A stretch of 51,072 nt of DNA from NCBI GenBank assembly GCA_964393065.1, contig CAYMRY010000001.1, positions 1-51,072 on the forward strand. The letters run 5' to 3'. A program made the translations under genes and the position numbers. Below are positions 4,465 through 48,388 of this stretch, piece after piece (the first letter of the stretch is position 1; each line of letters opens with the position of its first letter). This DNA comes from an uncultured Candidatus Saccharibacteria bacterium. Its GTDB lineage: Bacteria; Patescibacteriota; Minisyncoccia; Phycocordibacterales; UBA2100. Under the pieces are notes generated by a model. The model did not search any database. It saw nothing but the letters and a program-made list of their open reading frames with translations, and was not told the origin of the DNA.

Positions 4465-4593
4465 GCATCAACTATGGCACAGGATGTGCCGGGGGCAAGT
4501 GGCGTATGGGGACACAGCAAGAGTAGCAGAATGTGTGCTTAGAGTACTAAAGTACCGCTCATGAGCATGAGACAAGTAGACTGTAGTAGGTGT

Positions 4594-4729
4594 GGGTCAC
4601 GGATATTTTTCATGCCGTCGCATTAAAAATTCCGTGACCACGGCTCGCGGTTTCGTCTGCTGACGAAACATCACTCCGCCCGTCCACAACGCGAAAGCAC
4701 CATGCGCAGGCATGGTGCTTTCGTCGTTG
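4594..4729 (-). repeat. tRNA-trailing structured element, copy Ala-B
   Basis: Read in tRNA sense: long H1 (gaaagcaccatgc / gcatggtgctttc), GGCGGAG, H2 gtttcgtc-agca-gacgaaac (plus 4650-4669), CGCGAGCC, then H3 ggtcacgga...gcgacggc...tccgtgacc (plus 4595-4639). Aligns with copy Pro-B with compensatory changes. Confidence 0.7.
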
Positions 4730-4747
4730 TGGGCCGTACCGGGATCG
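4730..4747 (-). repeat. 18-nt near-copy of the tRNA-Ala 3' end (T-loop to discriminator)
   Basis: tgggccgtaccgggatcg versus tggaccgtaccgggatcg at 4904-4921 (17 of 18 identical). No 5' half of a tRNA is present. Confidence 0.85.
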
Positions 4748-4903
4748 GCGCAGCTCACTACGTTTTCTGATCGCCTTGCAGGCTCCATAAAACTAAGTGG
4801 CTCCTGCCCTCCCTCGCCTGTCGCAGGCGACATGGCTCCGCCTTTCGATCCCGGTCGTACGCAAAGAAGTTTGCGTACTTACGGTCCAAAAAATGATATT
4901 TTT
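4748..4903 (-). repeat. tRNA-trailing structured element, divergent copy Ala-A
   Basis: In tRNA sense: ggaccgt, hairpin gtacgcaaa-cttc-tttgcgtac, accgggatcg, AAA-GGCGGAG, hairpin cgcct-gcgac-aggcg. Shares the cgaaaggcggagc motif with Pro-B, and ends at the tRNA-Ala 3' fragment. Confidence 0.55.
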
Positions 4904-4976
4904 TGGACCGTACCGGGATCGAACCGGTTGCCTCATCCATGCCATGGATGCGCTCTACCAAGTGAGCTAACGGCCC
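4904..4976 (-). tRNA. tRNA-Ala (anticodon GGC)
   Basis: 73-nt cloverleaf read by hand: acceptor GGGCCGT/ACGGTCC with G3:U70, D arm GCTC-ACTTGGTA-GAGC, anticodon arm CATCC-ATGGCAT-GGATG, T arm ACCGG-TTCGATC-CCGGT, discriminator A. CCA is not encoded. Confidence 0.9.
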
Positions 4977-5023: not shown

Positions 5024-5824
5024 TTAGAGCGCCCGAATATCATACACAAAACCGCGTTTTGCAGTCTCTTCAAGTACGGCACGCATCACCGAAACCGTTT
5101 CTACGGGGTATTTTCCATTCGTCGTCTCATTTGAAAGCATGACAGCGTCGGCTCCTTGCATTGCCGCAAAAGCGACATCGGTTACATCCGAGCGCGCGGG
5201 TTGAGGATGTTCCAACATGGAAGGCATCATGTCAGTTGCGACGATAATAGGCTTACCGCAATCGCGTGCCTCTTGAATAAGCGCCATTTCATCAAAAGGA
5301 ATTTCAGCGAGCGGGACTTCGTTGCCAAGGTCCCCCCGCGCCACCATTATTACATCGGCAGCCGCGATAATTTCCTTAGCATGCTCAAGTGCAATTTTTC
5401 GTTCAATTTTCGCGATTATTTTAGCGCTTCCTCCCGCTTCTCGTATGAGAGAGCGAAGTTCTTCTACATCTGCGGCCTTACCCACATAGGAGAGTGCAAA
5501 ATACTCTATTTGGAGTGCAGTGCCACGAACAATATCTTCACGATCTTTTACCGTGATAACAGAGTTCGTCAGCGTATCGAAATGGTGACCACCTTTCTCC
5601 TGTACGCGAGGACCAGAAAGGTCGAACACTATCGGAATGCGCGTTGCGAGGCGCTTTGCAATGCCGCGCACTGTCTCCGTGAAGTACGCATGCTCATTCA
5701 CCGGACCCCACGAAAGGTTGAGACGAGCAACATCCATACCGTTTTCAATCATTTTTTCAAGGACTCCAGCGTCATATGAAGACGGGCCGAGTGTCGCTAC
5801 GATGGAAGGTCGTTTAAGAGGCAT
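5024..5824 (-). CDS. pyk: pyruvate kinase-like protein, A (barrel) domain only
   Basis: 266 aa. PK motifs IVATLGPSS, ARLNLSWG, DLSGPRVQ, EKGG (catalytic Lys region), MVARGDLGNEVP and VMLSNETTNGKYP are present. The lid (B) and C-terminal regulatory domains are absent. Overlaps the eno stop by 11 nt. Confidence 0.7.
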   Translation of the reverse strand: MPLKRPSIVATLGPSSYDAGVLEKMIENGMDVARLNLSWGPVNEHAYFTETVRGIAKRLATRIPIVFDLSGPRVQEKGGHHFDTLTNSVITVKDREDIVRGTALQIEYFALSYVGKAADVEELRSLIREAGGSAKIIAKIERKIALEHAKEIIAAADVIMVARGDLGNEVPLAEIPFDEMALIQEARDCGKPIIVATDMMPSMLEHPQPARSDVTDVAFAAMQGADAVMLSNETTNGKYPVETVSVMRAVLEETAKRGFVYDIRAL

Positions 5825-12536: not shown

Positions 12537-12606
12537 CCGCTCTTGCATAAACCCCAAAGACTGATAGCGTGTCGAGAGATTGAACATATGGCTAAGAGGA
12601 GGTGTC

Positions 12607-13218
12607 ATGACCACTAAGCGACGCACGGTAGATCCCCTTTCACGCGATCCTGCAATGATTGAAAAAACATACCAACTTTCTCGCAAAACGCGGGTGATGT
12701 TAGGACGCGTAAAGTACATACTTTCTGCTCGTGAAATCGCTGATAAACTTTCGCGAGTGAGGAAGCGCCCAGTCACCATACATCAGGTTACAGTGCTGTG
12801 GCACTCCTACGGACAAGGTCGTGAGGGATTTGTCCAAGAAGTGAAGCGAAGAAAAAAAAATAGAGAACCCCTGCTCTTACTCACTCATACAGAGCGACAA
12901 AAGCAACATTCTCTTGTCACGCCATTTGCTATGCAAAAATCCTCAGCGAAGGAGCAATCACATACGGCAATCAGCAACGACCTCGAGGACGCTTTATGGC
13001 TTCGCGTTGCCGATTCCCTCATGCGAAAGGGTGGAAGTATGAACTTCGCAATACGCGATAGAGCACTGCCTTTTACTGATAAGGAGTTGCGACAGCTCAT
13101 TATTAAGAAATACCAGACAATGGAGCGTTTCTTTTCTCAGTGGGGAGCAAAGGTTCATGAAGAGCGCAGACGGCTCAGATTGGATTACATTCCAAATCTC
13201 AACGACGGCACCGGATAG
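12607..13218 (+). CDS. basic hypothetical protein
   Basis: ATG at 12607 is preceded by aggagg at good spacing (the ORF track starts at an upstream TTG, 12580). No family recognised. Followed by an intrinsic terminator. Confidence 0.5.
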   Translation: MTTKRRTVDPLSRDPAMIEKTYQLSRKTRVMLGRVKYILSAREIADKLSRVRKRPVTIHQVTVLWHSYGQGREGFVQEVKRRKKNREPLLLLTHTERQKQHSLVTPFAMQKSSAKEQSHTAISNDLEDALWLRVADSLMRKGGSMNFAIRDRALPFTDKELRQLIIKKYQTMERFFSQWGAKVHEERRRLRLDYIPNLNDGTG

Positions 13219-13231: not shown

Positions 13232-13269
13232 GAACTAGCAGTATGAATACTATGCTTTATCTTTATTGG

Positions 13270-13429
13270 AAGGACGGCGAGAATACCTCGCGGCTCTGCC
13301 GCGAGGATGAATCGCCGCCAATTGATTTGAGCGCCCGGTGGGCGCTCATCTTCCAACAAAAACGCCACGGTAGTCGCTCGCGAATACCCCGACCCTTGGG
13401 TCGGGGATCGACGAGCGACTCGTTTTTAT
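13270..13429 (-). repeat. tRNA-trailing structured element, degenerate copy Pro-C
   Basis: In tRNA sense: long H1 (agtcgctcg...ccccgaccc-aa-gggtcgggg...cgagcgact), a hairpin gagcgcc/ggcgctc, TGGCGGCGAT, then H2-like cctcgcgg-cagag-ccgcgagg (plus 13286-13306). No clear H3. Confidence 0.4.
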
Positions 13430-13454
13430 TCGGGCGGACGAGAATCGAACTCGT
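13430..13454 (-). repeat. orphan tRNA 3' fragment (T arm plus acceptor 3' strand) from a different tRNA
   Basis: Minus strand reads acgag-ttcgatt-ctcgt-ccgcccg-a. No matching 5' half nearby. The implied C1-G72 pair and A73 fit a tRNA-Pro isoacceptor (inference). Confidence 0.7.
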
Positions 13455-13475
13455 TTTACATCTTTCAATACTTTT

Positions 13476-13493
13476 TCGGGATACTGGGAGTCG
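13476..13493 (-). repeat. 18-nt exact copy of the tRNA-Pro 3' end
   Basis: tcgggatactgggagtcg is identical to 13642-13659. Confidence 0.9.
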
Positions 13494-13641
13494 GTCAGGG
13501 ATACATTTTTCGCCGTCGCTCAAAATGTTCCCCGACCCGGGCTCGCGGTTTCGCGTGCTCGCGAAACATCGCTCCGCCTTTCGCCTCCCTCGAAGAATGT
13601 GCGAAGGCACATTCTTCGTATCCGCACTCGCTTCTCTCGTG
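13494..13641 (-). repeat. tRNA-trailing structured element, copy Pro-B
   Basis: In tRNA sense: gcggatac, H1 gaagaatgtgc/gcacattcttc, gagggaggcg, AAA-GGCGGAG, H2 gtttcgcg-agca-cgcgaaac (plus 13548-13567), CGCGAGCC, then H3 ggtcgggga...gcgacggc...tccctgacc. Confidence 0.7.
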
Positions 13642-13713
13642 TCGGGATACTGGGAGTCGAACCCAGCGTCTCTTGCACCCCATGCAAGCGTGTTGCCGCT
13701 ACACTATATCCCG
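13642..13713 (-). tRNA. tRNA-Pro (anticodon GGG)
   Basis: 72-nt cloverleaf: acceptor CGGGATA/TATCCCG, D arm GTGT-AGCGGCA-ACAC, anticodon arm CTTGC-ATGGGGT-GCAAG (G37), T arm CTGGG-TTCGACT-CCCAG, discriminator A. CCA is not encoded. Confidence 0.88.
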
Positions 13714-13888
13714 AAAAAGTATTGAAAGCCGGGGGTAAAATGGTCCCACACGACATCATTTTGCCCGTTTTTTCGATATATCGCAAAGAAGTGTGCGATA
13801 TGTTTGCGAAAAACGCCCAGCCATGCGTACAGTAGGTCAACTACGGCCCGGTAGCATAAAGTATAGCGAGACTTATGTTTCGCGTACA

Positions 13889-16802: not shown

Positions 16803-18527
16803 TCACTCCGCGAGATACTCGGGCTTGTTTTCACGAAGCCAATAGAAGAATTGTGAAAGTGCGGGAGACGCTCCCGAGAGTGTTCCTGCCGGCGCTTTTT
16901 CGAGTACTACCGCAAACGCATACTTCGGTTTCTCGCTCGGCCAGAAACCGATGACCCACGAATTCATAAATTCATTATTACGTCCGATCTGTGCGGTACC
17001 TGTTTTCGCGGCAATCGATATGCCACCCATATTCAATGCTGCAGCAGTACCACCTGCATGTACCGCATCGTACATTCCCTCGCGTACAATCTGTAAATCG
17101 TCATCCGAGATTCCCACATGAGAGCGAGAGAGTAGCGTGCAGTGCGATGCACTCAAAAGACAGGGAGTAAGAACGGTGCCGCCGTTCGCGATTGCGGCAG
17201 TAAAGCGCGCAACTTGCAGCGGCGTCACTTGAAATCCGTATTGTCCGATAGCGGTGTTATAGGTATCACCAAGGCGCCAGGGATCCTCAAACACTTTTTC
17301 TTTCCACTCCGGCGTAGGAATTGTTCCTTGTGCTTCTCCCGTGAGCGCAAAACCGGTAATTTCGCCGAGGCCAAAACGTCGCGCGTATTCATCGATTTTT
17401 GCAATACCAAGACCTGCCTGATCCTTGTATCCCCCTCCAATCGCGTAAAAATACACATCAGAGGAAACTGCGATCGCACGACGCATATCAACATACCCAT
17501 GTGCTTTCCAATCCTTAAAAATCGAAGGCTTTTCCGGTGTGTAGGGATTCGGAATCGAGATTGATCCTGTCGAGAGTATCTCTTTTTCAGGCGAAATGAG
17601 TTTTTCATTCAGTGCAGCGGCAGCAAAAATCGGTTTTACGATTGATCCTGGTGCATACACTCCCGCAACAGCGCGATTTAACGTCGGCGATCGTGCATCC
17701 GCGTTTGCACTCGCGATTACCTCAGTATCGCCATCAGAAAACGCGGCGTTGTTGTATTCAGGAAAACTCGTCAGTGCAATCAACTCTCCGGTTTCGACAT
17801 GCATGATCACTGCAGCGCCGCCTTGAAATCTATTATTTTTTGCATGTCCTGAGAGTATGCGAGCCAGTTCCGACTGAATGTCAGCATCAATCGAAAGCCT
17901 CAGGGTTTCTCCGTCTTGTGGCGGATCCACAATATCCTCGCGCACAAGAATGCCGCGAGCATTGGTTTCGGTCATGGTACTGCCATTTCTTCCACGCAGC
18001 ACCTGTTCAAACGCATGCTCAACACCAGAAATACCGGTGTATTCCTCACGCCACCACGAGCCGCTTGCGTCTGCTTTTGGATAGCGAACGTATCCTAGAA
18101 TGTGCGAGAAGCCGGGTCCTTCAATGTAATGACGCCGCGCGTACGGTAATGCGGCTTTCGCATCTGCGTCCTTTTCTTCGGTAGAGGTGGCAAGAGAAAG
18201 CGTTTCGTTCCAGACAAGCTCTTTTCCATTGCGGTCGGTGATGATACCGCGCGTTGCAAACAATACCGATCGCTCAAGGCGATTATTGCGCGAAATATCG
18301 GCATACGTGCTCCCTTTCACGATTTGAAGCGTAAATGCTTGCGATGCAAAGACGCTTGCGGCAAGAAAAAAACACACACCGATAGCAGCAATCGCGATGC
18401 GCGAAACAGGCCTCTCGATGCGTCCTTCAAGCTGTGCGAAATCAAGACCCGAGCGATTACTCGAATCAAGAAAAATATCTTCCGGATCTATTTCGCTCCC
18501 GCGCGCCCGCGCTTTCCACCACACCAT
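16803..18527 (-). CDS. mrdA: penicillin-binding protein 2 (elongasome transpeptidase)
   Basis: PBP dimerisation and transpeptidase pattern (SIVKP = SxxK, SSD = SxN-like, KTGTA = KTG). Lies downstream of mreBCD. Start set at MVWWK (18527); the ORF is open up to 18593. Confidence 0.8.
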   Translation of the reverse strand: MVWWKARARGSEIDPEDIFLDSSNRSGLDFAQLEGRIERPVSRIAIAAIGVCFFLAASVFASQAFTLQIVKGSTYADISRNNRLERSVLFATRGIITDRNGKELVWNETLSLATSTEEKDADAKAALPYARRHYIEGPGFSHILGYVRYPKADASGSWWREEYTGISGVEHAFEQVLRGRNGSTMTETNARGILVREDIVDPPQDGETLRLSIDADIQSELARILSGHAKNNRFQGGAAVIMHVETGELIALTSFPEYNNAAFSDGDTEVIASANADARSPTLNRAVAGVYAPGSIVKPIFAAAALNEKLISPEKEILSTGSISIPNPYTPEKPSIFKDWKAHGYVDMRRAIAVSSDVYFYAIGGGYKDQAGLGIAKIDEYARRFGLGEITGFALTGEAQGTIPTPEWKEKVFEDPWRLGDTYNTAIGQYGFQVTPLQVARFTAAIANGGTVLTPCLLSASHCTLLSRSHVGISDDDLQIVREGMYDAVHAGGTAAALNMGGISIAAKTGTAQIGRNNEFMNSWVIGFWPSEKPKYAFAVVLEKAPAGTLSGASPALSQFFYWLRENKPEYLAE

Positions 18528-18546
18528 ATACTGACTATACCGTATT

Positions 18547-18846
18547 TTATCGAAGTGCGTGACCAAGGAGTAACTGACGGCGCAGCGGCTCAAGAGCGAA
18601 TACGAGAAGACACGCTATAAGTGTCGCAAGAGGGAGAGATTCGAATGTAAGAAACGATACGGGCGTCGGCATCCATAAAAAATCCATAAAAAGACCAACA
18701 CCAATGACTTCCCACGCGCGCCACCTCAGAGCGAGCGGAACGGCTAAGAGGGCAACAACCCACGGATAGGCGAAAAGTGCGCTTGCGTACATACATACCG
18801 CAAGCACTATGCGCGTATTACTGCTGAGCGGGGATGACGTAGACAT
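18547..18846 (-). CDS. mreD: MreD-like small membrane protein
   Basis: 99-aa polytopic hydrophobic ORF between mreC and PBP2. The call rests on position plus hydrophobicity only. Confidence 0.45.
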   Translation of the reverse strand: MSTSSPLSSNTRIVLAVCMYASALFAYPWVVALLAVPLALRWRAWEVIGVGLFMDFLWMPTPVSFLTFESLPLATLIACLLVFALEPLRRQLLLGHALR

Positions 18847-19612
18847 AGCGCAGTGTTGCTAGATTTGTAGGTAATCGCATAAATACTTTTTGTGAGGCGC
18901 TTGATGAGGCTGATTCAATTGCTCCGATGATGCCGACGATGCGGTTGTAATGTTCTGGCGACGTAACAGCATCTCCGACGGCAATGAGTGCAGTGCGTGG
19001 CATTTCTCCGCGCGCATTACCTCCACCGTATCCTTGAGCGGAAAAAGCAACTTCGTTTGCAATAAGATCGATATTCTCCCCTGGAGAAAGAAGTGCTTTT
19101 ACACTCGCTGTTTCTGAATCAACATCGCTAATGGTGCCGAGTAAATAGCCGCCAGGAGTTAGAACTACGCTGCCAATAGTTATACCCGCATTTTTCCCGG
19201 AACCTATAAGAAACGTCCCGTACGGTGATGCTTGAAATGAGGAAAGCATGCGTACCGCGATACCCCCCGGATCGCGCGCGACTAAGTGTGCAAGTTCCTG
19301 TAAACGCGCATTGTCGGCTTCGAGTTCTTTAAATCGTGCGGAGTGCTCTTGTAATAGACTGAGTTGCTCCTTTAATGCGTCATTCTCGCGGATCAGTGAC
19401 TGACGCGACGCAAGAACTCCACTCGAATCTATCGCAGTAACCGCACTTACGGCTGTGCTCCAGGTGATCGTACCGATTGTACGAACATACGAGCGCACAA
19501 TTCCGCTTGTGATGGTATCAAGTCCAAAGAGCGCGACGATTATGAGTGCAACAATCGCGAAAGCGCCCACATGAGGCTTCTCTCTATTCAGTCGGAATGA
19601 GTTCTTCATCAT
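18818..19612 (-). CDS. mreC: rod shape-determining protein MreC
   Basis: N-terminal TM helix, coiled coil (LIRENDALKEQLSLLQEHSARFKELEADNARLQEL) and a beta-rich C-domain. Start set at MMKNSF (19612). Confidence 0.75.
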   Translation of the reverse strand: MMKNSFRLNREKPHVGAFAIVALIIVALFGLDTITSGIVRSYVRTIGTITWSTAVSAVTAIDSSGVLASRQSLIRENDALKEQLSLLQEHSARFKELEADNARLQELAHLVARDPGGIAVRMLSSFQASPYGTFLIGSGKNAGITIGSVVLTPGGYLLGTISDVDSETASVKALLSPGENIDLIANEVAFSAQGYGGGNARGEMPRTALIAVGDAVTSPEHYNRIVGIIGAIESASSSASQKVFMRLPTNLATLRYVYVIPAQQ

Positions 19613-20654
19613 TTTGTTTGAGTACTTCGAAATATAGGTCCATATCTTCAAGAATAATCGCGGTTCCGCGCACAACGGCGGTAAGTGGATCGTGCGCGAC
19701 CGTTACCGGAACGCCGAGTGCTGAGCGCAAAAATTCGGGTAGGCCGCGAATAAGCGCCCCACCACCGGCAAGATGAATACCGCTTTGCATCACGTCCGCG
19801 AGAATCTCAGGCGGCGCCTCTTCCAGAATATTTTTAACCTGCTCAACCAAGTCATCGATAGAGTGGCCGATCGCAGTTCGCACATCTTCATCCGTGAGAA
19901 CAATCTCACGCGGCAACCCGGTCACGAGGTCGCGACCGCGCGCCGTCACGACTATCGGATCCGCGCCGCGCAAAATAGCAGAGGCTGCAATCTTTATTTC
20001 TTCCGCTGTTTTCTCCCCGATCAATATTTTATGCTCCGTGCGGATATAGCTCGATATATCGACATTGAATTTATCCCCTGCTATGCGGATGTTGCGTGCT
20101 ATGACGAGTCCCCCGAGGGATACGATGCCGATGTCAGTTGTACCTCCGCCAATATCGATCACCATACTTCCTGTTGGAGCGTGCACCGGCAGCTCGATAC
20201 CAATTGCCGCCGCCATGGGTTCATCAACAATGTGCACTTCGCGCGCCCCTGCCGCGTGCGCGGCGTCACGCACTGCGCGCACTTCAACGGAAGTAATACC
20301 GGAGGGGACCCCGATGATGACGCGTGGACCAAGGAGCTTCGAGCGTCCCGCTTGCGCTTTATTAATAAGGTAACCGAGCATTTCGCTCGTAATTTCAAAG
20401 TCGGAAATTACGCCATCGACTACCGGCTGCACGGGCGTGATATGAGGCGGCGTGCGGCCGAGCATGTTCTTTGCCTCCTGCCCCACTGCAACGACCTGCC
20501 CCGTTTTTTGATTCACCGCAACGATGGAGGGTTCATTGATGACGATTCCGCGGCCTTTGACGTAGACGAGCGTATTTGCGGTACCCAAATCAATACCAAT
20601 ATCATTCGAGAAGAGCCCTACTATCTTTTCTTTCCATCGTCGCAGCGTATCCAT
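19584..20654 (-). CDS. mreB: actin-like rod shape protein MreB
   Basis: 356 aa with IGIDLGTANTLVY, VIDIGGGTTD and GIHLAGGGALIRGL motifs. Confidence 0.92.
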   Translation of the reverse strand: MDTLRRWKEKIVGLFSNDIGIDLGTANTLVYVKGRGIVINEPSIVAVNQKTGQVVAVGQEAKNMLGRTPPHITPVQPVVDGVISDFEITSEMLGYLINKAQAGRSKLLGPRVIIGVPSGITSVEVRAVRDAAHAAGAREVHIVDEPMAAAIGIELPVHAPTGSMVIDIGGGTTDIGIVSLGGLVIARNIRIAGDKFNVDISSYIRTEHKILIGEKTAEEIKIAASAILRGADPIVVTARGRDLVTGLPREIVLTDEDVRTAIGHSIDDLVEQVKNILEEAPPEILADVMQSGIHLAGGGALIRGLPEFLRSALGVPVTVAHDPLTAVVRGTAIILEDMDLYFEVLKQNDEELIPTE

Positions 20655-25503: not shown

Positions 25504-26517
25504 TTAGCGCTTGCTCGTAATCGCCTTCTTGTACACATCAAGATGCTTGAGGGCTTCGCCTGTTCCCTTTGCAACGCAATAGGGTGCATCTTTTGCCATC
25601 TGGGCTTTCACATTGGTGCGGCGATAGATCAGTTCGGGTAGATTGCGCAATTGTGACGATCCTCCCGTCATAATGATCCCATTGTCGATTATGTCGGAGG
25701 CGAGCTCCGGCGGTGTTTCTTGAAGTACGTCTTTTATTGCGCCCACCATGGTGCGTAATTCCTTCGCCATAGCGCGGACAATTTCGTTTGAGGAGAGCTC
25801 GATCGAACGCGGAAGTCCGGTAAGATAATCGCGTCCTTTGATGATCATTTTAAATTCTTCTTCAATCGGTACTGCGGAACCGATTTTGATTTTAATTTCT
25901 TCTGCCATCTTGTCACCAATTGCGAGGTTGAGGTTTTTCTTAATGTAATCGACGATGGCGCGATCGAGCGCATTTCCCGCACATTTCACCGATGTTGACG
26001 CGACGATGCCGCCAAGCGATATCACTGCGACATCCGTAGTGCCGCCGCCAATATCGACAATCATGTGTCCGCGCGCTTCGTGAATAGGAATACCTGCGCC
26101 GATTGCCGCAAGAATCGGCTCCTTAACGACGTAGGCGTGCCGAGCACCCGCCTTTGTCGCAGCTTCAACAACCGCGCGACGCTCTGTTGAAGTCACCCCC
26201 GCAGGAACGGAGACCATCACTTCCGGGCGAAATATGTTCCAACGCCCGAGCGCTTTGCGCATGTAGTAACGAAGCATCGCTTCGGTGACGCGGTAATCCG
26301 CAATAACGCCATCTTTCATGGGGCGATATGCTTTTATGGCATCCGGAGTTCGTCCTATCATTTCCTTTGCCTCAATACCGATGGCAAGAATTTTGTTGTC
26401 TTCGAGTGAAATAGCGACAACCGAGGGTTCATTAAGCACAATCCCGCGCTTAGGGACATAGACAAGTACCGTCGTCGTTCCGAGGTCAATACCGAGTTTG
26501 GGAGAAAAGAATGACAT
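25504..26517 (-). CDS. second MreB/Mbl-family actin-like protein
   Basis: Begins MSFFSPKLGIDLGTTTVLVY, with IVDIGGGTTD and GIIMTGGSSQLRNL. Start set at 26517; the upstream extension to 26640 looks non-coding. Confidence 0.88.
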   Translation of the reverse strand: MSFFSPKLGIDLGTTTVLVYVPKRGIVLNEPSVVAISLEDNKILAIGIEAKEMIGRTPDAIKAYRPMKDGVIADYRVTEAMLRYYMRKALGRWNIFRPEVMVSVPAGVTSTERRAVVEAATKAGARHAYVVKEPILAAIGAGIPIHEARGHMIVDIGGGTTDVAVISLGGIVASTSVKCAGNALDRAIVDYIKKNLNLAIGDKMAEEIKIKIGSAVPIEEEFKMIIKGRDYLTGLPRSIELSSNEIVRAMAKELRTMVGAIKDVLQETPPELASDIIDNGIIMTGGSSQLRNLPELIYRRTNVKAQMAKDAPYCVAKGTGEALKHLDVYKKAITSKR

Positions 26518-26671
26518 AAGGGTGATTCGCCGTGCAATTGTATGCTGAATCATTAAAAAGAAAAGGTGAGATGGGGATGGGGCCCTATCGCAAGGCCGGA
26601 AGTGCCTTGCGCCAAGGCCAGGTCGCGCAAAATCGCGCAAGTAATTTATGTGAGACGCGCGTAAAATCTAC

Positions 26672-32301: not shown

Positions 32302-35300
32302 CTACGGATTCATTCGAGCAATCGCGTCTTCAAACGATATGACTTCGATTCCTGACGTTGCGATTGCATTCACTGTTTCTTGGAAGAATATCGGTGAGAC
32401 CCCAAGCGATTTACTGAGATCGTCGTCGACTTGGTGGAACATAAGTACGAGCCATGCGTTATCCGCAATCGCCTCATTGATCCATTCCTGTAGCTCTACG
32501 AGTGTTGTAGAACGATTCATACTCTGAATCTTTAGAGCAAATTTATCAGTCGCTTTTGTGTTAAATCCACGCTCGACGCCACGTGCGCCGATAAAACCGG
32601 CGTCCCGTACCATCTGTTGTACAGCAGGATTATATGCGCCGAATGGATACGCGATCGAAGCGACAGACGTAATACCTGCGCCTAGCAATTCAGCACGCGA
32701 ACCTGCAATCTCCTGCTGTGCCTGTTCAGTACTGATCGTGGTTAGGTTTGCGTGAGTCTGCGTGTGCGCCGCAATCTCATGACCTTGCGTTTGCATCTCG
32801 AGCATCTGTGATGTGTTCAAGAATTCGGGAACACGTTTTACTGACATGTTGTCGATCGTGAGAGTGCCGACCGATGCGAGGATGTGATATAGCGTGACAA
32901 GGCGCGCGTTTGTTGGAAGTTCCACATCACGCGAGTAGCGCTGCCACACGCCATTCGTTGAAGGGAGCGCGTCTAGATAGACATGCTGCACTGTATCGTC
33001 GGTAAGTGTAATTTCAAGAACAATTTCAGTAATGGTATCTGTCATATAACTATCTTCAAATCGGTACGTTTGTCCGGGAATCACGGCAACACCTTCGAAC
33101 CACCACTTTGCGTCGCCATCTGTATACGACGTCATTTCGACGCGTGCACCTTGACCGGTCTCACCTGCAATCGGGTACGCAAAGGTACGGTCGTTCGTTC
33201 CCCAACCACCAGGGTGCCATCGTTTAGGATACCCCTCATCATCGAAATCTATTTCTTCCAAAGACGGATTGTACACCAACTCCTCAGACACTGCGTTCAG
33301 CGTTTCCTGGGAGGTAATGAAGAATGTTCCCTTCATATTCGCTGCGTTTAGTATGGGAAGTGCGGTTGCGTACTGGGAAATCCATCCATCATCAAACGTA
33401 AGAGAAACCATACCGTTTGCAAACATATTCGGATTTCCTTCAATGAGTTCGTACGCGTCGACTTCAAGCCATCCCACTGAGTTGAGGATGTGTAGAATCG
33501 TGACTGATGCTGCGCCCTGAGGCGGTAAGAACGTCTGCTGAATGGAGGTCCAATCTGCAACCGGCCCAAAGTTACCAAGACTAATGTATTGATATGTGCC
33601 GTTTGTCATCGTATAGCGCGCTGTAATGTTTGTCGTGACGTTTGAACGATAGTCATGTGTAAACGTATATTCCTGACCAGGAACAACCGCGACATCATCA
33701 TGGCGCCACTTTGCGTCTCCATTTGTGTAGCTTGTCATTTCGATGCGCGCACCGTTGTCGCCATGGGTGCCGGCAACCGGATACGTGAAGACTCTTGTAT
33801 TGGTGCCCCAACCTGCAGTGGTCCACTGTGCAGGAGTATTCGCTCCCGCCTCGATCTCAAATGACGGGTTTGCAATAAGACTTACGAGAGGCGGTTCATC
33901 TACACCAGTATCGATCGTAATCGAAATTGGTGAAGATGTGCCGATGTTTCCCGCAACGTCACGCACCCATGTGTGTAAAATGTGAGAGCCTTGTGAGAGT
34001 CCTGAAAGCGGAAGCGTAATTGATCGTGCTTCATCTTCTGCAGGGCCTCCTGGTTGCGATGTGGAATCTTCAACATATGAGACGCCGTCAACCGTCACTC
34101 CGTATGCTGCGATTGCAACATACTCATCGACGTCGGAGACTACGGAAATCGTCGTACCAGTGGTAATGGTAGTTCCCTCGAGAGGTGCGGTGATTGCAAC
34201 AATTGGCGCTATCGTGTCTGGGATATGCGCACCTTCATAGAGTTTATACGTATCGGTCACCAGATATCCTGCTGCGTGAAGGATATGGAATACGGTGACG
34301 CTCGCAGCATCGCTCGGTACGGTAAACTGCGCGAGAGAATACGCGCCAGTTGAACCCGAGGCTGGAAGAGTTTTGAGGAACATATATAGAATGGTTCCAT
34401 CCACTCGCGTAACGCGCGCAAGTAGTTCTGTCGAGACATTACTTTGATAGTAGTTACTAAATGTGTAGGTAGCACCAGGGGTGACAGGAACGTCCTCGAA
34501 GTACCATTTTGCATCACCATTCGTATAGTTTGTGATTTCAACTTTTGCACCAATTGCAGCCTTTCCGGTACTAACGGAACTAAATGTACGATTATTCATA
34601 CCCCACCCTCCTTTTTTCCAGGCTGTTTGCCCAACTACGTCAATCTGCTCGAGATAAGGGTCTACAATAAGATTACCGACAGCGGGGACATAATTCGAGA
34701 CATCCACAGTAACAGTGCTTGTTGCCGTGTTCCCTGCTGCGTCACGCGCACGCAGCGAGAGAACGTGCGCTCCGTTTGTGACAACGGTAGTATCCCACGC
34801 AAATTCATATGGAGCAGAAGTGTCTTCTGCACCGTTTTCAACTGCATCCACTATAAACGTGACTCCGACGATACCGCTCGCATCGCTTGCAGTGCCGGAA
34901 ACGGTTGTAGTACCACTCACTGTTCCACCGATAGGTGAATCAAGTGTCACCATGGGAGGCGTCACATCTGCTTCGGTAAGCGAAAAATTGTCTACTTCGA
35001 GGGAACCTACGGAATGCAATATGTGAAATACAGTAAGTGACACGGCATTCACAGGTGCTGTCATTGTCGCAAGAGATTGGGTCCAGTTTCCGGCCGGTGC
35101 GCGTGTCCCGAGATATTGATATTGTATCGATCCATCAATCAGCGTGTACCGCACAAGGAGTTCCGTCGATACCGTACTTTTGTATTCATGTGAGAATACG
35201 TAGACTTCACCGGGTAAGACTGCCACATCCGCAAAATACCATTTTGCATCCCCATTCAATAAACTTGTTATCTCGATTTTTGCAGCATCAAATCCATGTG

Positions 35301-38300
35301 ATCCTTCAGTGGGATACGTGAAAACACGGTCATTATCACCCCATCCGCCACGGTACCAAGCCTGTGGATCTCCGTTGGGACCCGGTGCTTCGAGTGACGG
35401 ATTTGCAATACGATTGTCACCTGTTGGTGATGTATTATCAACAGTTACTGTAATAGTGTGCGTCGAGTTGTTACCATACGGGTCATGGGTAGTTGCCTTA
35501 ATTAGATGTTCACCATCGACAATTGTAGTCGTATCCCACTCAAAATTATATGGTGCAGAGGTAATCTGTCCCGTCAATGGAATGCCATCGATTGCGTAAA
35601 AAATGTACGTAACTGCCGTATCGTCAGTTGAGGAAGCTGAAAGAGTCACGGTACCATGAATGGTTTGATGTGCGACGGGATTCGTTATCTCCACAATTGG
35701 CGCGTTCGTTTCAGAAGGAAAACCTGCTCCCATTTCGGTCAAACTCACATCATCAATTTCTAGGAATCCCTCGGAACTGATAAGGTGAAAGAGCGTCACA
35801 TGTGTAGCTCCCTCGGGTGGCGTAAACGTGCCAGTCGTACTTGCCCACGCGAGCGTTGGTTGTATCTCCTTTTGAAGCCCAAAATAATGGAATTCCCCGG
35901 TACTTAATGTGTATTGACCAATGATGTCTGAGATTGTATCTGAGCGATAATAATCGCGATAAAAGTACTCGATTCCTGGCGTGATCGGAATTTTCGTAAA
36001 AAACCACTTTGAGTCACCGTTGCCTACAGGTGCATCGGGATAATTGATTATTTCTACGCGAGCTGCGCGACCACCATCGTATCCAAGTATAGGATATGTG
36101 TAAACACGAGTGTGATCACCCCAGCCTCCATGACCCCAGTTAAATGGAGTAGGGCCATTTTCAAGCTCAAAGTTTCCATTAATAACTAGATTCTGAGCAG
36201 CGTTTGCGAATGTCACGTGAATGGGAGTTGCATACGATATATTGCCAGAATTATCGCGTGCACGAGCAGAGATTACATGCAGCCCATTGGATAAATACGT
36301 AGTATCAAGACTAAAGAAATAAGGCTCACCGACAACTTCGGCCGCATACTCGTAACCGTCGACAAGAAGCTGCACATCGGCAACGCCACCTGCGTCAGCT
36401 GCCGCAACCGTAACCATGATGGTGCCATCTAGAATCGCTGAATCGATCGGGGAGGAAATGTAAATTGAAGGAGCAGTTGTGTCGTTCGTATTCTCAACGT
36501 GTGTAAGAGAGAAGGTATCAGTTGTCAGTATTCCAACATCGCTTAGCTCGTGCCAAATAGTCATGGTCTCGATATTGGCCGGCACCGTCACCAAATAATT
36601 TACCTGTGTCGGGACTGTTGTTGCTGGCGAATCACCAAGGAATAGGTACTGATATGTCCCGTCGCTTTTTCCGAATTGAACTGAGTGCGCAGTTGGTACC
36701 GATGCCGTATAGAAGTTCGAGTATAAGTACTGTTCTCCGGGTGATACCGAGATTGGACTAAAGTACCACTTAGCATTGCCGTCAGAGTGAAAATCCATAC
36801 TTACTGCAGCAGCACGAGCCCCGTCAAAACCCGGAACGGGATACGTAAATGTTGGATTATTGAAACCGTAATTGCCGCGAATCCAGTAGAGCGGGTTTAT
36901 TCCGGCACCATCCTCCGGCACTTCGACAGACGGATTGGGAATCAGATTTCCTGCGCCAGTGCTATTATCAAGGTACAAATTTACACTTGTTGTATGTGAG
37001 AGATTATTAGAGTCTGTCACTGTGAGCTCGACTTCGGTGTACACATCAGTCGCATTGTGATCCGGCGCGATAAACCAGGGATTTTTAACTCCGATAAACT
37101 CCTGTTCAATATGAATGTGTGTGTTGTGATGCAAGATAATTCGCCAATGGAAGTTTGATGCGGGTATAGAGCCATCCTCTAAATCTAAACCCTCTCCTGA
37201 GAGATCTACGATATCATTTGGCTTGTATAAAGAACCAGATGAAGGCGAAGTAATATGTGCCGTTGGTGCCTGATTACCCACCGTAATAACCACGCTTTGT
37301 GATGCCGATGAACCATGAATGTCCGCCACGGTAAGTGATGCCGTGTACGTCCCATCGAGCGAATACGTGTGGACGGGATCTTCTTCTGAGGAAGCCGCAC
37401 CGTCACCAAAGTTCCAATCATATGTTAAAACATCGCCATCCGGATCGTACGTTCCATCACTTGATAAAACAACAGAAAGCGGTGTGAGTCCAGCAGTTGG
37501 CGTGGCGAAAATGGACACCACAGGACGTCGATTACCGGTGGTATGCGTAATTCGATTAAGCTCACCGGTGTAGATAGACAGATAATAGATCGACCCATCA
37601 GGGCCAGCCGATATATCCACAGGACCATCGGGGTCGTCCATAAAGTCATGAATTGATACGAATTCGTCATTTTCATTAAGCACCAAACGCTTTATCCAAT
37701 TCTGTGCGTAATCACCTACAAAAAGAGTAGTATCGTACGCGGCTGGATACGCATTACTGTGTGCAAAATCGCCCACTGTAATAGACCCCGCCCCGAATTC
37801 GTTGTGAGGATACTCGTAAATGGGATTCGTTGTGGAGGCACTGCAATTGTGAATTGTAAGTACAGTCCCCTCCCAACATGGCCACCCATAGTTTGCACCT
37901 GAAATTATTTTATTAACCTCTTCACGAGAGCTCCATCCAACATCTCCCACATATAACGCCCCTGAATTCGGACTAAAATTAAATCGGAACGCATTGCGAA
38001 CTCCGGAGGCATATACTTTGGAGCGGTTTGCCATTACATTTCCATTGAAATGAGGATTATCCGCTGGTGCGCTTCCATCGGTATTTATACGAAGTACTTT
38101 ACCAGCAAGAGAATCAATATTTTGTGCTCGGAGTGACAAAGGATCTGCGTAATCAAAATTGGCGCCATCACCAAGTGTTGCATACAATTTACCGTCGGGA
38201 CCAAAACGTAACCCCCCAACACTATGACTACCCGAATCTGATGGAATACAGTCCGCAGTTACTGGGAAATTTTCACATGAAGGAGCATCAATACCTCCAC

Positions 38301-38751
38301 CAATTGAACCGACAAGTACGAACTTACTTGATTCCAAAGCGGTGTTCCCAACAACTGTTACGCGTACAATACGACCTGTTTTAGGTCCTGCAAAATTACT
38401 TCCAGGAGTATTTTCATATGTGTATGAAAGATAAAGAAAGCCATTACTCTCAAAATTGGGATCTACGGCGATTCCAAGTAAGCCCCGATCACCAAATGTA
38501 TTGACATCAGTAAGTGTTATTACCGGCTCTGGGGCGAGCTGCCCGTTCTGAACAACACGAACAGTTCCGCTTTTTTCCGCGACAAATATTCTTCCATCAT
38601 GTGCAAAAGACATTGCCACAGGAAGTATAAATCCAGATGCAACAACTTCCCTCTCAAATCCAGGCTCTATAATAACTGCAGATACATGCCATGGGGCGAT
38701 AAGCACCAGTGAAAGTAATGCACTACAAAGAAACTGACTGATAGTTTTCAT
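32302..38751 (-). CDS. giant secreted multidomain protein: glucose/sorbosone dehydrogenase-like propeller, PKD, Ig-like spacers, six CBM-like modules, split CE4 deacetylase
   Basis: 2149 aa with a signal peptide. aa ~30-402 form a GSDH-like propeller (DRGLLGIAVDP, HSVGGLRFGPDGKLY). aa ~408-493 form a PKD domain. Six modules share the core GGWGxNxRxFxYP...NGDAKWYF...PG. The C-terminus carries NodB/CE4 motifs TFDDG and HTQTH. Confidence 0.8.
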   Translation of the reverse strand: MKTISQFLCSALLSLVLIAPWHVSAVIIEPGFEREVVASGFILPVAMSFAHDGRIFVAEKSGTVRVVQNGQLAPEPVITLTDVNTFGDRGLLGIAVDPNFESNGFLYLSYTYENTPGSNFAGPKTGRIVRVTVVGNTALESSKFVLVGSIGGGIDAPSCENFPVTADCIPSDSGSHSVGGLRFGPDGKLYATLGDGANFDYADPLSLRAQNIDSLAGKVLRINTDGSAPADNPHFNGNVMANRSKVYASGVRNAFRFNFSPNSGALYVGDVGWSSREEVNKIISGANYGWPCWEGTVLTIHNCSASTTNPIYEYPHNEFGAGSITVGDFAHSNAYPAAYDTTLFVGDYAQNWIKRLVLNENDEFVSIHDFMDDPDGPVDISAGPDGSIYYLSIYTGELNRITHTTGNRRPVVSIFATPTAGLTPLSVVLSSDGTYDPDGDVLTYDWNFGDGAASSEEDPVHTYSLDGTYTASLTVADIHGSSASQSVVITVGNQAPTAHITSPSSGSLYKPNDIVDLSGEGLDLEDGSIPASNFHWRIILHHNTHIHIEQEFIGVKNPWFIAPDHNATDVYTEVELTVTDSNNLSHTTSVNLYLDNSTGAGNLIPNPSVEVPEDGAGINPLYWIRGNYGFNNPTFTYPVPGFDGARAAAVSMDFHSDGNAKWYFSPISVSPGEQYLYSNFYTASVPTAHSVQFGKSDGTYQYLFLGDSPATTVPTQVNYLVTVPANIETMTIWHELSDVGILTTDTFSLTHVENTNDTTAPSIYISSPIDSAILDGTIMVTVAAADAGGVADVQLLVDGYEYAAEVVGEPYFFSLDTTYLSNGLHVISARARDNSGNISYATPIHVTFANAAQNLVINGNFELENGPTPFNWGHGGWGDHTRVYTYPILGYDGGRAARVEIINYPDAPVGNGDSKWFFTKIPITPGIEYFYRDYYRSDTISDIIGQYTLSTGEFHYFGLQKEIQPTLAWASTTGTFTPPEGATHVTLFHLISSEGFLEIDDVSLTEMGAGFPSETNAPIVEITNPVAHQTIHGTVTLSASSTDDTAVTYIFYAIDGIPLTGQITSAPYNFEWDTTTIVDGEHLIKATTHDPYGNNSTHTITVTVDNTSPTGDNRIANPSLEAPGPNGDPQAWYRGGWGDNDRVFTYPTEGSHGFDAAKIEITSLLNGDAKWYFADVAVLPGEVYVFSHEYKSTVSTELLVRYTLIDGSIQYQYLGTRAPAGNWTQSLATMTAPVNAVSLTVFHILHSVGSLEVDNFSLTEADVTPPMVTLDSPIGGTVSGTTTVSGTASDASGIVGVTFIVDAVENGAEDTSAPYEFAWDTTVVTNGAHVLSLRARDAAGNTATSTVTVDVSNYVPAVGNLIVDPYLEQIDVVGQTAWKKGGWGMNNRTFSSVSTGKAAIGAKVEITNYTNGDAKWYFEDVPVTPGATYTFSNYYQSNVSTELLARVTRVDGTILYMFLKTLPASGSTGAYSLAQFTVPSDAASVTVFHILHAAGYLVTDTYKLYEGAHIPDTIAPIVAITAPLEGTTITTGTTISVVSDVDEYVAIAAYGVTVDGVSYVEDSTSQPGGPAEDEARSITLPLSGLSQGSHILHTWVRDVAGNIGTSSPISITIDTGVDEPPLVSLIANPSFEIEAGANTPAQWTTAGWGTNTRVFTYPVAGTHGDNGARIEMTSYTNGDAKWRHDDVAVVPGQEYTFTHDYRSNVTTNITARYTMTNGTYQYISLGNFGPVADWTSIQQTFLPPQGAASVTILHILNSVGWLEVDAYELIEGNPNMFANGMVSLTFDDGWISQYATALPILNAANMKGTFFITSQETLNAVSEELVYNPSLEEIDFDDEGYPKRWHPGGWGTNDRTFAYPIAGETGQGARVEMTSYTDGDAKWWFEGVAVIPGQTYRFEDSYMTDTITEIVLEITLTDDTVQHVYLDALPSTNGVWQRYSRDVELPTNARLVTLYHILASVGTLTIDNMSVKRVPEFLNTSQMLEMQTQGHEIAAHTQTHANLTTISTEQAQQEIAGSRAELLGAGITSVASIAYPFGAYNPAVQQMVRDAGFIGARGVERGFNTKATDKFALKIQSMNRSTTLVELQEWINEAIADNAWLVLMFHQVDDDLSKSLGVSPIFFQETVNAIATSGIEVISFEDAIARMNP

Positions 38752-45088: not shown

Positions 45089-45394
45089 TCAATCCCTAAT
45101 TCTCCTCTGTCGATCAATCTGAACTTTGTCCACCTTGAGGCCATTGAGGCCATGCTTGTCGATCGCGCGCTGCCATGAAAGAAACTCGTCAACGGTGATG
45201 TTGTAGCGCTCGCACATCTCATCAAAACTGATGAGCCCGCCGCGCACCGCGGTGACCACTTCAGCCTTCCGCCGAATAACCCACCGCTTCGTATCCCGAG
45301 GCGGCAGATCCGCCACGGTTAAGGGTTTTCCATCGGGGCCGACGACATGGCGGGTTCGAACTCGTAGATCCGACTTCTTCTCGATATTCGACAT
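45089..45394 (-). CDS. DUF1153 (SciP-like) helix-turn-helix protein
   Basis: 101 aa. GPDGKPLTVADLPPRDTKRWVIRRKAEVVTAVRGGLISFDEMCERYNITVDEFLSWQRAIDKHGLNGL closely follows the DUF1153/SciP pattern as I recall it. Confidence 0.7.
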   Translation of the reverse strand: MSNIEKKSDLRVRTRHVVGPDGKPLTVADLPPRDTKRWVIRRKAEVVTAVRGGLISFDEMCERYNITVDEFLSWQRAIDKHGLNGLKVDKVQIDRQRRIRD

Positions 45395-46244: not shown

Positions 46245-46563
46245 TCCGCGGTGGCGCAACGGTAGCGCAGCTCGCTGTCAATGGCAGCTCTTTGGAGGAA
46301 TCCAAAGATGTATAACGAGGAGAATTGCTGGAAGCCCAAACCGTCATTGGTGGGTAATCAGCAGCCGAGACCCACGAGATAGCGCAAGCTTTATCTCACG
46401 GGTAAGGTTCAGAGACTATCCGAAAGGAGTAGGCCGGTAACGGTCGAAGCACCTCGCATCCCATCAGTCGAATGACTAAGGATGATGATATAGTCCACCC
46501 CCTTTAGAAATTTAGGGATAATGTGTAACGAGTTGGTTGTAGGTTCGAATCCTACCCGCGGAG
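46245..46563 (+). tRNA. tRNA-Asn (anticodon GUU after splicing) interrupted by a group I intron
   Basis: Exons are 46245-46278 and 46526-46563 (72 nt spliced). Acceptor TCCGCGG/CCGCGGA, D arm GCGC-AACGGTA-GCGC, anticodon stem GCTCG/CGAGT, T arm GTAGG-TTCGAAT-CCTAC, discriminator G. The spliced loop reads CT-GTT-AA. U1-A72 plus G73 fit Asn identity. Confidence 0.75.
46279..46525 (+). ncRNA. group I intron in the anticodon loop (between positions 35 and 36)
   Basis: 247 nt. P1 forms ctgT/Gcag with a U-G pair at the 5' splice site. P2 is ctttgga-GGAA-tccaaag. Core elements GTTCAGAGACTA (46408-46419) and GATATAGTCC (46487-46496) are present, with a GCAA-capped hairpin at 46377-46397 and a terminal G at 46525. 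Confidence 0.85.
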
Positions 46564-46723
46564 CTAGAAATCAGTTGGACCCCGAAGCATGTCTTCGGGG
46601 TCTTACTGTTTCTCTCCGTCGGTAGGATTCGAAGGCGAGCCCGAGGATCCATTCAGTAGAATGGATCGGGCGAGCGTGGTCAGGCGAAGTTTTGATTCGA
46701 CGGAATCAAAACGAGTGCTTGAC
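46564..46723 (+). repeat. tRNA-trailing structured element, copy Asn-1
   Basis: H1 gaccccgaag-catgt-cttcggggtc (46578-46602), antisense-core tccgtcggtaggattcg (46615-46631), AA-GGCGAGC, H2 gatccattc-agta-gaatggatc (46646-46667), GGCGAGCG, then H3 ggtcagg...gtttt-gattc-GACG-gaatc-aaaac...cttgacc (46678-46724). Confidence 0.7.
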
Positions 46724-46740
46724 CGAATCCTACCCGCGGA
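46724..46740 (+). repeat. 17-nt exact copy of the tRNA-Asn 3' end
   Basis: cgaatcctacccgcgga is identical to 46546-46562. Confidence 0.9.
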
Positions 46741-46884
46741 CTCAAAACGAGTGCGACACGGTTTCGTTAGGATTCGAAAAGAAATTCGGGGCGCCCATTC
46801 AGTAGAACGGGTCGAATTTATAGGGTCGAGAAATTATCACAATCGACGGAGCGAAAAATGTTCTTGACCGAACCTAGCTGCGGA
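46741..46884 (+). repeat. tRNA-trailing structured element, copy Asn-2, plus decayed tRNA-Asn 3' fragment
   Basis: ttaggattcg-AA, a decayed H2 (cccattc-agta-gaacggg), then H3 ggtcgagaa...atcGACGGag...ttcttgacc (46824-46869). It ends in cgaacctagctgcgga (46869-46884), a diverged copy of cgaatcctacccgcgga. Confidence 0.55.
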
Positions 46885-46925
46885 CAAAATGATACCTGAC
46901 CCTGTTATTTCATTTCCTCTTTCAA

Positions 46926-48218: not shown

Positions 48219-48388
48219 CTCCTTATTTAAAAAGAAATGCCTAGTTCGCCTTAGCGACATCACTCGACCACAGAGCCTAATAACACCACTGTTTCTCGTA
48301 TTTTGAGGTGCTTAGCTCCATTTTATTGTATGGTGTGACCAAGTGAGATCATTGGTAATGTTAGGCATTTTGATAGAATACTTGAACG

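Follow-up and report, generated by a model that had tools for sequence, protein, structure and literature searches.

Structured units downstream of tRNA genes in Patescibacteria insert into the ends of conserved genes and supply replacement gene ends

What are the folded segments that trail the tRNA genes of a Saccharibacteria contig, and what do they belong to? We analyzed a stretch of 51,072 nucleotides (nt), hereafter the window, from an uncultured Candidatus Saccharibacteria bacterium (assembly GCA_964393065.1, contig CAYMRY010000001.1, positions 1 to 51,072, forward strand), in which three tRNA genes are followed, in tRNA sense, by copies of a structured unit. A reading made from the letters of the window without database searches (the sequence-only reading) had listed seven such copies and treated them as a structured trailer of tRNA genes. 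We find that the unit is an element that inserts at ...C|RA towards the 3' side of conserved genes and swaps in its own gene end, and that it accumulates in tandem or nested arrays, can carry cargo and moves between genomes. Full-text literature searches returned no description of this element, and it is apparently undescribed.

Two covariance models were built, R1 from five of the copies and R2 from 103 relatives. Run unfiltered over the whole window, R2 returned exactly six copies, all in tRNA sense, at tRNA-Ala (AlaA and AlaB), tRNA-Pro (ProB) and tRNA-Asn (Asn1, Asn2 and Asn3), which establishes six of the seven listed copies as one family. The seventh, ProC, has the same three-helix topology but a divergent sequence and is matched by neither R1 nor R2, so that only topology and position place it in the family; the reading of ProC and of several nested copies was made by eye, and the E-values of the models are rough. 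At gathering score, Rfam 15 matched only the group I intron and two tRNAs in the window, in agreement with the earlier statement that the copies fit no known RNA family, and at E up to 10 the DNA of the element gave only sub-threshold matches to mir-4520 (21.9 bits) and t44 (20.6 bits). A strict pattern (CGGAG, a gap, then GGTC..GRAA..GACGG..RACC) was scanned in 185,579 species genomes and was found in at least 118 stretches, nearly all from Patescibacteria. Nomura-, Kaiser-, Lloyd-, Yonath-, Vogel-, Taylor-, Zambryskii- and Moraniibacteria and Paceibacterota occur among the matches listed, while the seven loci outside Patescibacteria, none with a model match, are chance matches (about six were expected). 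Two pattern scans of viral contigs gave zero matches, and a phage origin was rejected on that ground.

Model counts cover the window and the loci among the matches listed, which are 8-kb windows from metagenome-assembled genomes (designated L001 and so on). The search of these related genomes yielded 162 matches, the window included. Of these, 108 are found downstream of a tRNA or tmRNA gene of the same strand, at most 150 nt away, compared with 2.7% expected by random placement; a further 10 stand in tandem arrays behind a copy of this kind, 14 have their upstream side cut by an edge of the locus, and 30 lie elsewhere. The tRNA targets comprise 18 amino-acid specificities plus tmRNA, and Asn of the window makes 19, added separately because ARAGORN miscalls the intron-split tRNA-Asn. 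One conserved module is thus found at 20 or more different targets in many candidate phyla.

The consensus fold of the module is a three-way junction (3WJ), in which P2 and P3 are the hairpins H2 and H3 of the sequence-only reading, and P1 is formed by an antisense copy of the target gene 3' end (X') with a repeat of that end. P2 consists of G-N-C, a conserved GGA/GA internal loop, a variable stem and an AGYA apical loop, and P3 of a GGUCG...UGACC base with a conserved G.U pair, an A/U-rich middle, a GA/GA tandem, a GC stem and a GACG loop. The strands between the helices are AAA, NN and zero nt, and the helix GNC/GNC covaries. The covariation claimed for H2 and H3 holds in 102 distinct relatives, where 93.7% of cells are paired, against 69.9% after shuffling and 37-48% with slid partners; the alignment used for these counts was fitted to the model, which favors the structure, but the slide control is still far lower. 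Double changes fill 872 cells compared with 258 in shuffled sequences and occur at 37 of the 40 pairs. One pair of P3 is G.U in 96 of the 102 sequences. Across P2 and P3 we counted 198 G.T or T.G against 15 A.C or C.A, so that the tRNA-sense (gene-sense) strand is the folding strand, as the strand-specific G-U pairs noted earlier had indicated. The element, with its covarying, strand-specific fold, is not coding sequence, nor is it simply a repeat in double-stranded DNA. The asymmetry fits a substrate folded from one strand and would be the same for single-stranded DNA (ssDNA) and RNA; the acting form may be RNA.

Read in gene sense, a unit consists of an element-borne target-gene 3' end (X_e), a hairpin loop that is often CTGC, X', P2 and P3. 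X_e comprises nt ~57-73 or the last few nt plus trailer at tRNAs, and the last codons with the stop at topA and rplL. Every unit holds X', placed just 5' of the purine motif. The sequence-only reading gave coordinates, hairpins and motifs correctly but overlooked the direct repeats of the tRNA 3' end and their antisense copies within the units, and its H1 is largely the stem formed by the gene-end copy (tRNA 3' end, trailer or both) with the antisense arm. The terminus of P3 coincides exactly with the junction to the displaced host gene end (X_c), and in units of the T-loop type a second copy of tRNA nt ~57-73 (T-loop to discriminator) abuts P3 with zero linker. Units measure 130-180 nt with a conserved core of ~125 nt, the target-matched variable segments beside this scaffold measure 7-17 nt, and the target gene end is directly repeated over 17-75 nt.

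In many loci, for example L034, L025, L053 and L023, and at 4706-4709 in the window, the H1 loop reads CTGC, set in aaCTGCtt; this holds very often and irrespective of stem and target, which suggests a recognition site. Since it is CTGC whatever the P2 loop, the two loops do not covary, and a kissing of CTGC with the P2 loop AGCA(G) was rejected. A hammerhead or k-turn core was set aside by reasoning on junction strands and loop sizes; judged by a comparison of folds only, the junction of the element appears not to fit the hammerhead core (CUGANGA...GAAA...UH), and no Rfam ribozyme matched.

The view of a structured trailer belonging simply to tRNA genes is not supported in that form, because the module also lies in topA, rplL and another gene and is absent from the corresponding sites of relatives. 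The 3' end of topA holds it in six loci (L072, L074, L031, L020, L013 and L093). In these, the reading frame of the gene passes uninterrupted into the element, which supplies the last ~25 codons and the stop in a copy of its own, followed by a CTGC-loop hairpin, X', P2 and P3, and a second copy of the codons starts right after P3. Comparison of the two copies in L031 over 19 codons gave 9 differences, all of them synonymous (manual count), and in L074 and L013 the distal copy has undergone frameshift or decay. The rplL gene carries the module in L088 and L102. The element-side rplL end, gcgaaagtgacattaaaataa, is identical in both, whereas the host ends differ from it and from one another, all synonymously (KVTLK*), indicating that the gene-end copy travels with the element. 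Between these two loci the element region is 84.7% identical and the rplL gene 70.6%, with P3 identical when read by eye. A like arrangement, again with a replacement end, occurs at the stop of another coding sequence in L040. At tRNAs, tmRNA, topA and rplL, the target regains its 3' part from the copy that the element brings, and the displaced copy stands at the far end.

Comparison of orthologous tRNA loci revealed presence and absence of the element at both tRNA-Pro and tRNA-Ala. In L122, the closest relative found (90% protein identity in the neighboring decarboxylase), the interval from the decarboxylase gene to the P-type ATPase gene is 118 nt long and contains tRNA-Pro only, compared with 1353 nt in the window. 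The tRNA-Ala(ggc) site is empty in L124 and L125, has one copy of the 3'-end type in L123, and in the window has a T-loop-type and a 3'-end-type copy. Tandem copies were found in L042, L086, L089 and L060, and in L075 cargo of 1.2 kb separates tRNA-Gly from the module, with a second copy nested in the first. Taken together, the protein-gene sites, the rplL end shared by two genomes, arrays, nesting, cargo and empty orthologous sites show that the unit is an inserted mobile element.

These observations also bear on the explanation that the fold acts as RNA, either as a 3' trailer that terminates, stabilizes or processes the tRNA or mRNA, or as a switch in which X' pairs alternately with the tRNA 3' end and with the downstream copy, mobility being secondary. 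Such a role would suit a unit that is always in gene sense and directly downstream, with a conserved G.U pair and tandem G.A internal loops, with an X' able to pair with either copy in T-loop-type units, and with an H1 that resembles a terminator in Asn1 and many copies of the 3'-end type. We nevertheless regard it as unlikely, since each protein-gene insertion, at topA, rplL and the further coding-sequence end, brings a replacement end, close relatives do without the element at the same tRNA, and the tandem and nested copies have no obvious role in cis. Moreover, in the 3'-end-type copies the terminator-like hairpin precedes P2 and P3, so that the core would often escape transcription.

The tRNA genes of the window, the units and their parts are listed below; the arm of AlaA and the two fragments of an old tRNA-Pro were read from the sequence.

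4904-4976, minus strand: tRNA-Ala(ggc), called by ARAGORN and Rfam.
4904-4921, minus strand: last ~18 nt of tRNA-Ala, the proximal copy (Xp) of the repeated target segment.
4727-4903, minus strand: AlaA unit, T-loop type; R2 31.3 bits, E 3e-8, at 4730-4863.
4880-4894 and 4844-4856, minus strand: antisense arm of AlaA, split by a hairpin at 4857-4879.
4727-4747, minus strand: distal tRNA 3'-end copy (Xd) of AlaA, preceded by the P2/P3 core that follows the antisense arm.
4578-4726, minus strand: AlaB unit, 3'-end (trailer) type; R2 88.7 bits at 4578-4697.
4692-4723, minus strand: long hairpin H1 of AlaB with loop CTGC; inverted repeats I2 and I3 in the unit.
4595-4639, minus strand: P3 of AlaB with GACGG apex; the loop of its P2 is AGCA.
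13641-13713, minus strand: tRNA-Pro(ggg), called by ARAGORN and Rfam.
13476-13640, minus strand: ProB unit, T-loop type, the subject of the sequence-only reading; R2 109.6 bits at 13476-13599.
13591-13618, minus strand: H1 of ProB, followed by antisense arm, P2, P3 and the distal repeat at 13476-13493.
13430-13452, minus strand: 3' fragment of an old tRNA-Pro, gagttcgattctcgtccgcccga.
About 13821-13850, minus strand: degenerate 5' fragment of the old tRNA-Pro, matching the 3' fragment.
13259-13363, minus strand: ProC, three-helix topology but divergent in sequence; follows the 3' fragment of the old tRNA-Pro.
46245-46563, plus strand: tRNA-Asn(GTT), split by a group I intron (Rfam RF00028, 46267-46517, 63.8 bits).
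46564-46740, plus strand: Asn1 unit; R2 60.1 bits at 46614-46741.
46577-46603, plus strand: terminator-like H1 of Asn1.
46614-46633, plus strand: antisense arm of Asn1, followed by P2 and P3.
46724-46740, plus strand: distal repeat of Asn1.
46741-46885, plus strand: Asn2 unit, degenerate; R2 51.8 bits at 46759-46885.
46926-47945, minus strand: open reading frame (ORF) of 339 amino acids (aa) inside the Asn array, with no Pfam domain.
48044-48219, plus strand: Asn3 unit; R2 99.7 bits at 48095-48220.
48044-48066, plus strand: duplicate of the tRNA-Asn end and unit start, followed by the 3WJ of Asn3.
48203-48219, plus strand: distal repeat of Asn3.

At tRNA-Ala, the direct repeat 4901-4921 / 4727-4747 is 90% identical over 21 nt, the fold of AlaA has a z of -4.5, with inverted repeats I1 and I4 and direct repeat D1 present, and the junction of AlaB reads ...GTGACC|CACACC. 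At tRNA-Pro, repeat D1 (13476-13493 against the proximal copy 13642-13659) is identical in 18 of 18 positions, and ProB, which has inverted repeat I5 besides D1, folds with -55.4 kcal/mol (z -5.0); the values for ProC are -78.7 kcal/mol and z -7.9. The remnants of the old tRNA-Pro flank the present gene and resemble the intact tRNA-Pro of L122, and the present gene differs from them in acceptor stem and T arm. An incoming tRNA-Pro copy appears to have replaced the resident tRNA gene. A perfect 22-nt inverted repeat (13462-13483 / 13707-13728) encloses tRNA-Pro and ProB, pairing 15 nt of 5' leader and the 5' strand of the acceptor with the distal repeat and 15 nt of trailer; it may be a hairpin whose loop received the ProB unit. 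Leader-trailer pairing as a general trait of tRNA genes was rejected (1.35 vs 1.34 contiguous pairs in these genomes). Between ProC and the ATPase gene lies a 212-aa ORF (12580-13218, plus strand) with its own terminator and no Pfam or NCBIfam match, which is absent from the empty site of L122 and is therefore probably island cargo.

The intron of the third tRNA spans 46279-46525 (247 nt) as read by hand, and ARAGORN with introns allowed agrees; its removal leaves the anticodon loop ctGTTaa, which identifies the tRNA as Asn. The intron sits in the anticodon loop, the homologous tRNA-Asn of L001 has none, and ARAGORN also called intron-containing tRNAs in L132 (242 nt) and L039 (184 nt). The proximal repeat copy of this gene lies at 46546-46562, and the antisense arm at Asn, 20 nt long, is 90% complementary to the tRNA-end segment. 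In Asn1, which has D1, I1 and I3, the distal repeat is identical to the tRNA-Asn copy in 17 of 17 positions and the fold reaches -75.2 kcal/mol (z -9.6). Asn2 has lost the purine motif, its distal repeat is decayed and its fold has a z of only -1.4 (repeats D2, D7 and D16), and the distal repeat of Asn3 is 76% identical (D1, D4, D5 and I12 present). Exact flanking repeats of 17-18 nt, from tRNA nt ~57-73, occur in the window, L060, L008 and others.

Where, then, is the crossover, and what does X' pair with? The junction of the T-loop type is ...TTC|GAA..., between nt 56 and 57, and that of the 3'-end type is ...C|ACA, at nt 72/73. In T-loop-type units, X' pairs with the proximal copy at -23.6 kcal/mol (control -15.8) and with the distal copy at -17.3 kcal/mol (control -12.9). 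In 3'-end-type units, it pairs with the proximal tRNA end and the element's trailer at -19.2 kcal/mol (control -12.2). The constant pairing is that of X' with the element-borne copy, and the 3WJ forms in the integrated state only where the host and element copies are alike. This pattern fits a free form in which the end of P3 and X_e are linked and the junction is closed through X'.

The layout corresponds to a Campbell-type insertion, with, as we infer, the crossover at P3|X. We favor, with moderate confidence, the explanation that the units are miniature non-autonomous integrative cassettes resembling those of integrons, in which the folded 3WJ marks the crossover. The free form would be a small single-stranded circle of the gene-sense strand that folds into the junction. 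In this circle X' would pair with X_e, the three helices would meet, and the corner P3|X_e would be the crossover point. A recombinase supplied in trans would bind P2 and P3 and exchange the tRNA-sense strand at ...C|RA with a matching chromosomal site, and replication would then fix the insertion, as in the integron reaction attC x attI or with the folded attP of CTX-phi; X' may additionally aid target alignment. The proposed mechanism fits the strand specificity, the zero-length joint between P3 and P1 and the lack of a recombinase nearby.

Like integron cassettes, the units are small, often gene-less or single-gene, and stacked at one attachment point, with a site that may work as a single folded strand, an inverted core (R'') in the unit that pairs with R' just beyond the structure, a proposed crossover at the foot of the fold, and a unit that starts with the 3' part of the site and closes with inverted core and fold, after which the next site copy comes. 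They differ in that the attC core is RYYYAAC...GTTRRRY with a crossover at G|TT, while the element junction is ...TGACC|RA; no IntI gene and no attI are present here; and the arms of the element are long and vary by target (GAATCC..., ACA..., AAAAACC...). In addition, attC is conserved mainly in shape and P2/P3 in sequence, and the element attaches at the 3' end of an essential gene and restores that end. With CTX-phi and other Xer-dependent elements the units share two inverted target copies about 90 nt apart that fold in one strand (the arms of the Asn copies are 90-92 nt apart), and the system resembles theirs in tandem arrays and in the proposed exchange of one strand with integration completed by replication. 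However, the target of CTX-phi is dif and its enzyme XerCD, its loop contains no conserved two-hairpin module, and it involves phage genomes rather than units of 130-180 nt.

Does any linked gene encode the enzyme? Housekeeping synteny was all that about 80 loci had in common, with no recurrent neighboring protein family; no integrase was found near any of about 110 loci, and no recombinase domain in the 46 larger ORFs of the window that were scanned. The 339-aa ORF of the Asn array has two homologues only among 5.8 billion proteins, of which one is encoded in an island at tRNA-Asn that lacks the element, and was rejected as the enzyme for this and for its lack of domains; it is probably cargo or a separate insertion. 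Another 339-aa ORF, beside AlaB, is unrelated, has a peptidoglycan-binding domain and was likewise rejected.

This search also weighs on the proposal that the copies are ordinary decayed att arms of conventional integrase islands at tRNA genes. Islands at tRNA and tmRNA genes, cis-mobilizable elements and tycheposons do insert at the T-loop or 3' end and supply the gene end, they classically show partial repeats of the tRNA and accrete in tandem, and integrase-less satellites exist; an island headed by a serine recombinase occurs at tRNA-Asn of L001. But those islands have a recognizable integrase and target-specific att arms, and islands with different targets share no att arms. Here a uniform core of ~125 nt is conserved across many candidate phyla and 20 or more targets, the element contains no integrase, its cargo, where present, has no recombinase domain, and the loci named above have no integrase nearby. 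We therefore give this proposal hardly any credence. The L001 recombinase, a 525-aa large serine recombinase (17380-19017) whose gene overlaps the 3' end of tRNA-Asn, heads a conventional island with HEPN, reverse-transcriptase and helix-turn-helix genes. L001 is also the genome with the only close homologue of the 339-aa ORF of the Asn array.

The only mobile-element enzyme among the larger ORFs scanned in the window is a Y1 transposase of the IS200/RAYT-like kind:

50356-51027, plus strand: Y1 transposase gene; Pfam PF01797, 26.6 bits.
50308-50325 and 51051-51068: perfect 18-nt inverted repeat CGGGGACAGGCACAGTTA flanking the Y1 gene.

It scores 68.3 bits with the NCBIfam model for REP-associated tyrosine transposases, below the cut-off of 80 of that model, and has one in-frame TAG (50590-50592). 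More than 3000 homologues of about 223 aa were found, with source names that include Kaiser-, Lloyd- and Parcubacteria; they keep inverted repeats of 18-20 bp. A partial direct copy of the repeat lies just upstream of the gene, and the contig stops 4 nt past the right repeat; homologues are often on very short contigs or paired, as would be seen for a repeat at which assemblies break. Immediately upstream of the Y1 gene and in the same frame is an ORF with a NADAR/GP30.3-like domain (49846-50355, plus strand), which is probably a separate gene.

Could the units be ssDNA elements of the IS200/IS605 or REP type, served in trans by a Y1 HUH enzyme, with X' as an extended guide of the IS608 type? 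Both kinds of element have strand-specific hairpins next to the junction and an antisense segment 5' of the hairpins (paired, in IS200/IS605 and REP/RAYT, with the cleavage sites), both have many non-autonomous copies and lie at gene 3' ends, a Y1 gene is on the same contig, and the Y1 family is widespread in the same phylum-level groups. On the other hand, the motif GGGGACAGKCAC from the Y1 flanks is found only there and in 0 of the 118 listed pattern loci that carry the element, and no model match lies within 4 kb of the Y1 homologues examined. With its own inverted repeats and no co-location, a link of Y1 to the element is unsupported, and Y1 was rejected as the partner. IS200/IS605 elements also insert 3' of a 4-5-nt target without duplication or direct repeats, use guides of 4-5 nt and bring no replacement gene end, and the Y1 copy of the window is interrupted by its TAG. 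We consider this origin improbable.

A conserved scaffold beside variable, target-matched segments, together with RNA-like motifs, is what might be expected if P2/P3 were the scaffold of a guide RNA (of the bridge-RNA or omega-RNA kind), with the X' and X arms programming a recombinase or nuclease; the IS110 bridge RNA is also a structured non-coding module that lies by the recombination junction and has target-matching segments. However, no IS110, TnpB or IscB-like gene is near any of the 162 copies, and no DEDD recombinase is present. Over one and the same stretch of nucleotides the two arms of the element pair with one another, which is unlike the guide pairs of bridge RNA, with non-overlapping guide halves in two internal loops, and would mask a guide, and the pairing is minimal in rplL-type and 3'-end-type copies. 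The duplication is at least 17 nt, compared with a 2-nt core in IS110. We judge a guide-RNA scaffold very unlikely. The element shares logic with integrons, Xer phages, tRNA islands and IS200/REP elements but lacks defining traits of each.

Several results weigh against the integrative-cassette explanation itself. No recombinase is linked to the element in the window ORFs or the neighboring loci, and the one mobile enzyme of the window has repeats of its own that occur in none of the 118 listed loci. A free or circular form was not seen, and viral contigs were empty. The tandem G.A loops and the conserved G.U pair are at least as RNA-like as DNA-like. In 3'-end-type units, X' pairs with the distal host sequence no better than the control (-6.4 vs -6.3 kcal/mol), and in the rplL copies, too, it hardly pairs with the distal host copy, so that the integrated 3WJ is not universal and a guiding role of X' is putative. 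The cassette explanation also leaves the origin of new target specificities without an account. There is a real chance that the element is something more unusual than a site-specific integrative cassette. We tentatively entertain a self-targeting system, in which a small single-stranded circle (DNA, or RNA with a DNA stage) would carry sense and antisense copies of the target. If this were true, the fold against the two-hairpin module would set the point of cutting and joining, and target choice would reside in nucleic acid rather than protein and could be re-programmed to any conserved gene end; a host factor or an uncharacterized protein family of Patescibacteria might then serve as the enzyme.

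In Patescibacteria, which have tiny genomes and few recognized mobile elements, a single family is present at each of the three tRNA loci of one 51-kb contig and turns up again in many candidate phyla. It reshapes tRNA, tmRNA, topA and rplL loci, ferries small cargo genes, and probably breaks assemblies and confuses tRNA annotation. More than 20 insertion sites, one fold and no recombinase seen point either to an unrecognized enzyme or to target choice set largely by base pairing, and either outcome would be of interest to genome engineers. The alignment and models would allow the family to be entered into RNA and repeat databases.

Other features were observed in the window and the related loci. 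About 850 nt upstream of tRNA-Asn is a 101-aa ORF (45089-45394, minus strand) with DUF1153 and HTH_28 domains; small helix-turn-helix proteins often accompany transposases. Two MreB paralogues (19584-20654 and 25504-26640, minus strand) lie about 5 kb apart, and a surface-type protein of 2149 aa (32302-38751, minus strand) combines GSDH, PKD, Big_7, CBM and polysaccharide deacetylase domains. The Lloydbacteria contig of L079 carries a LOOT RNA (Rfam RF03000, 51.9 bits) at 5621-5752 on the plus strand.

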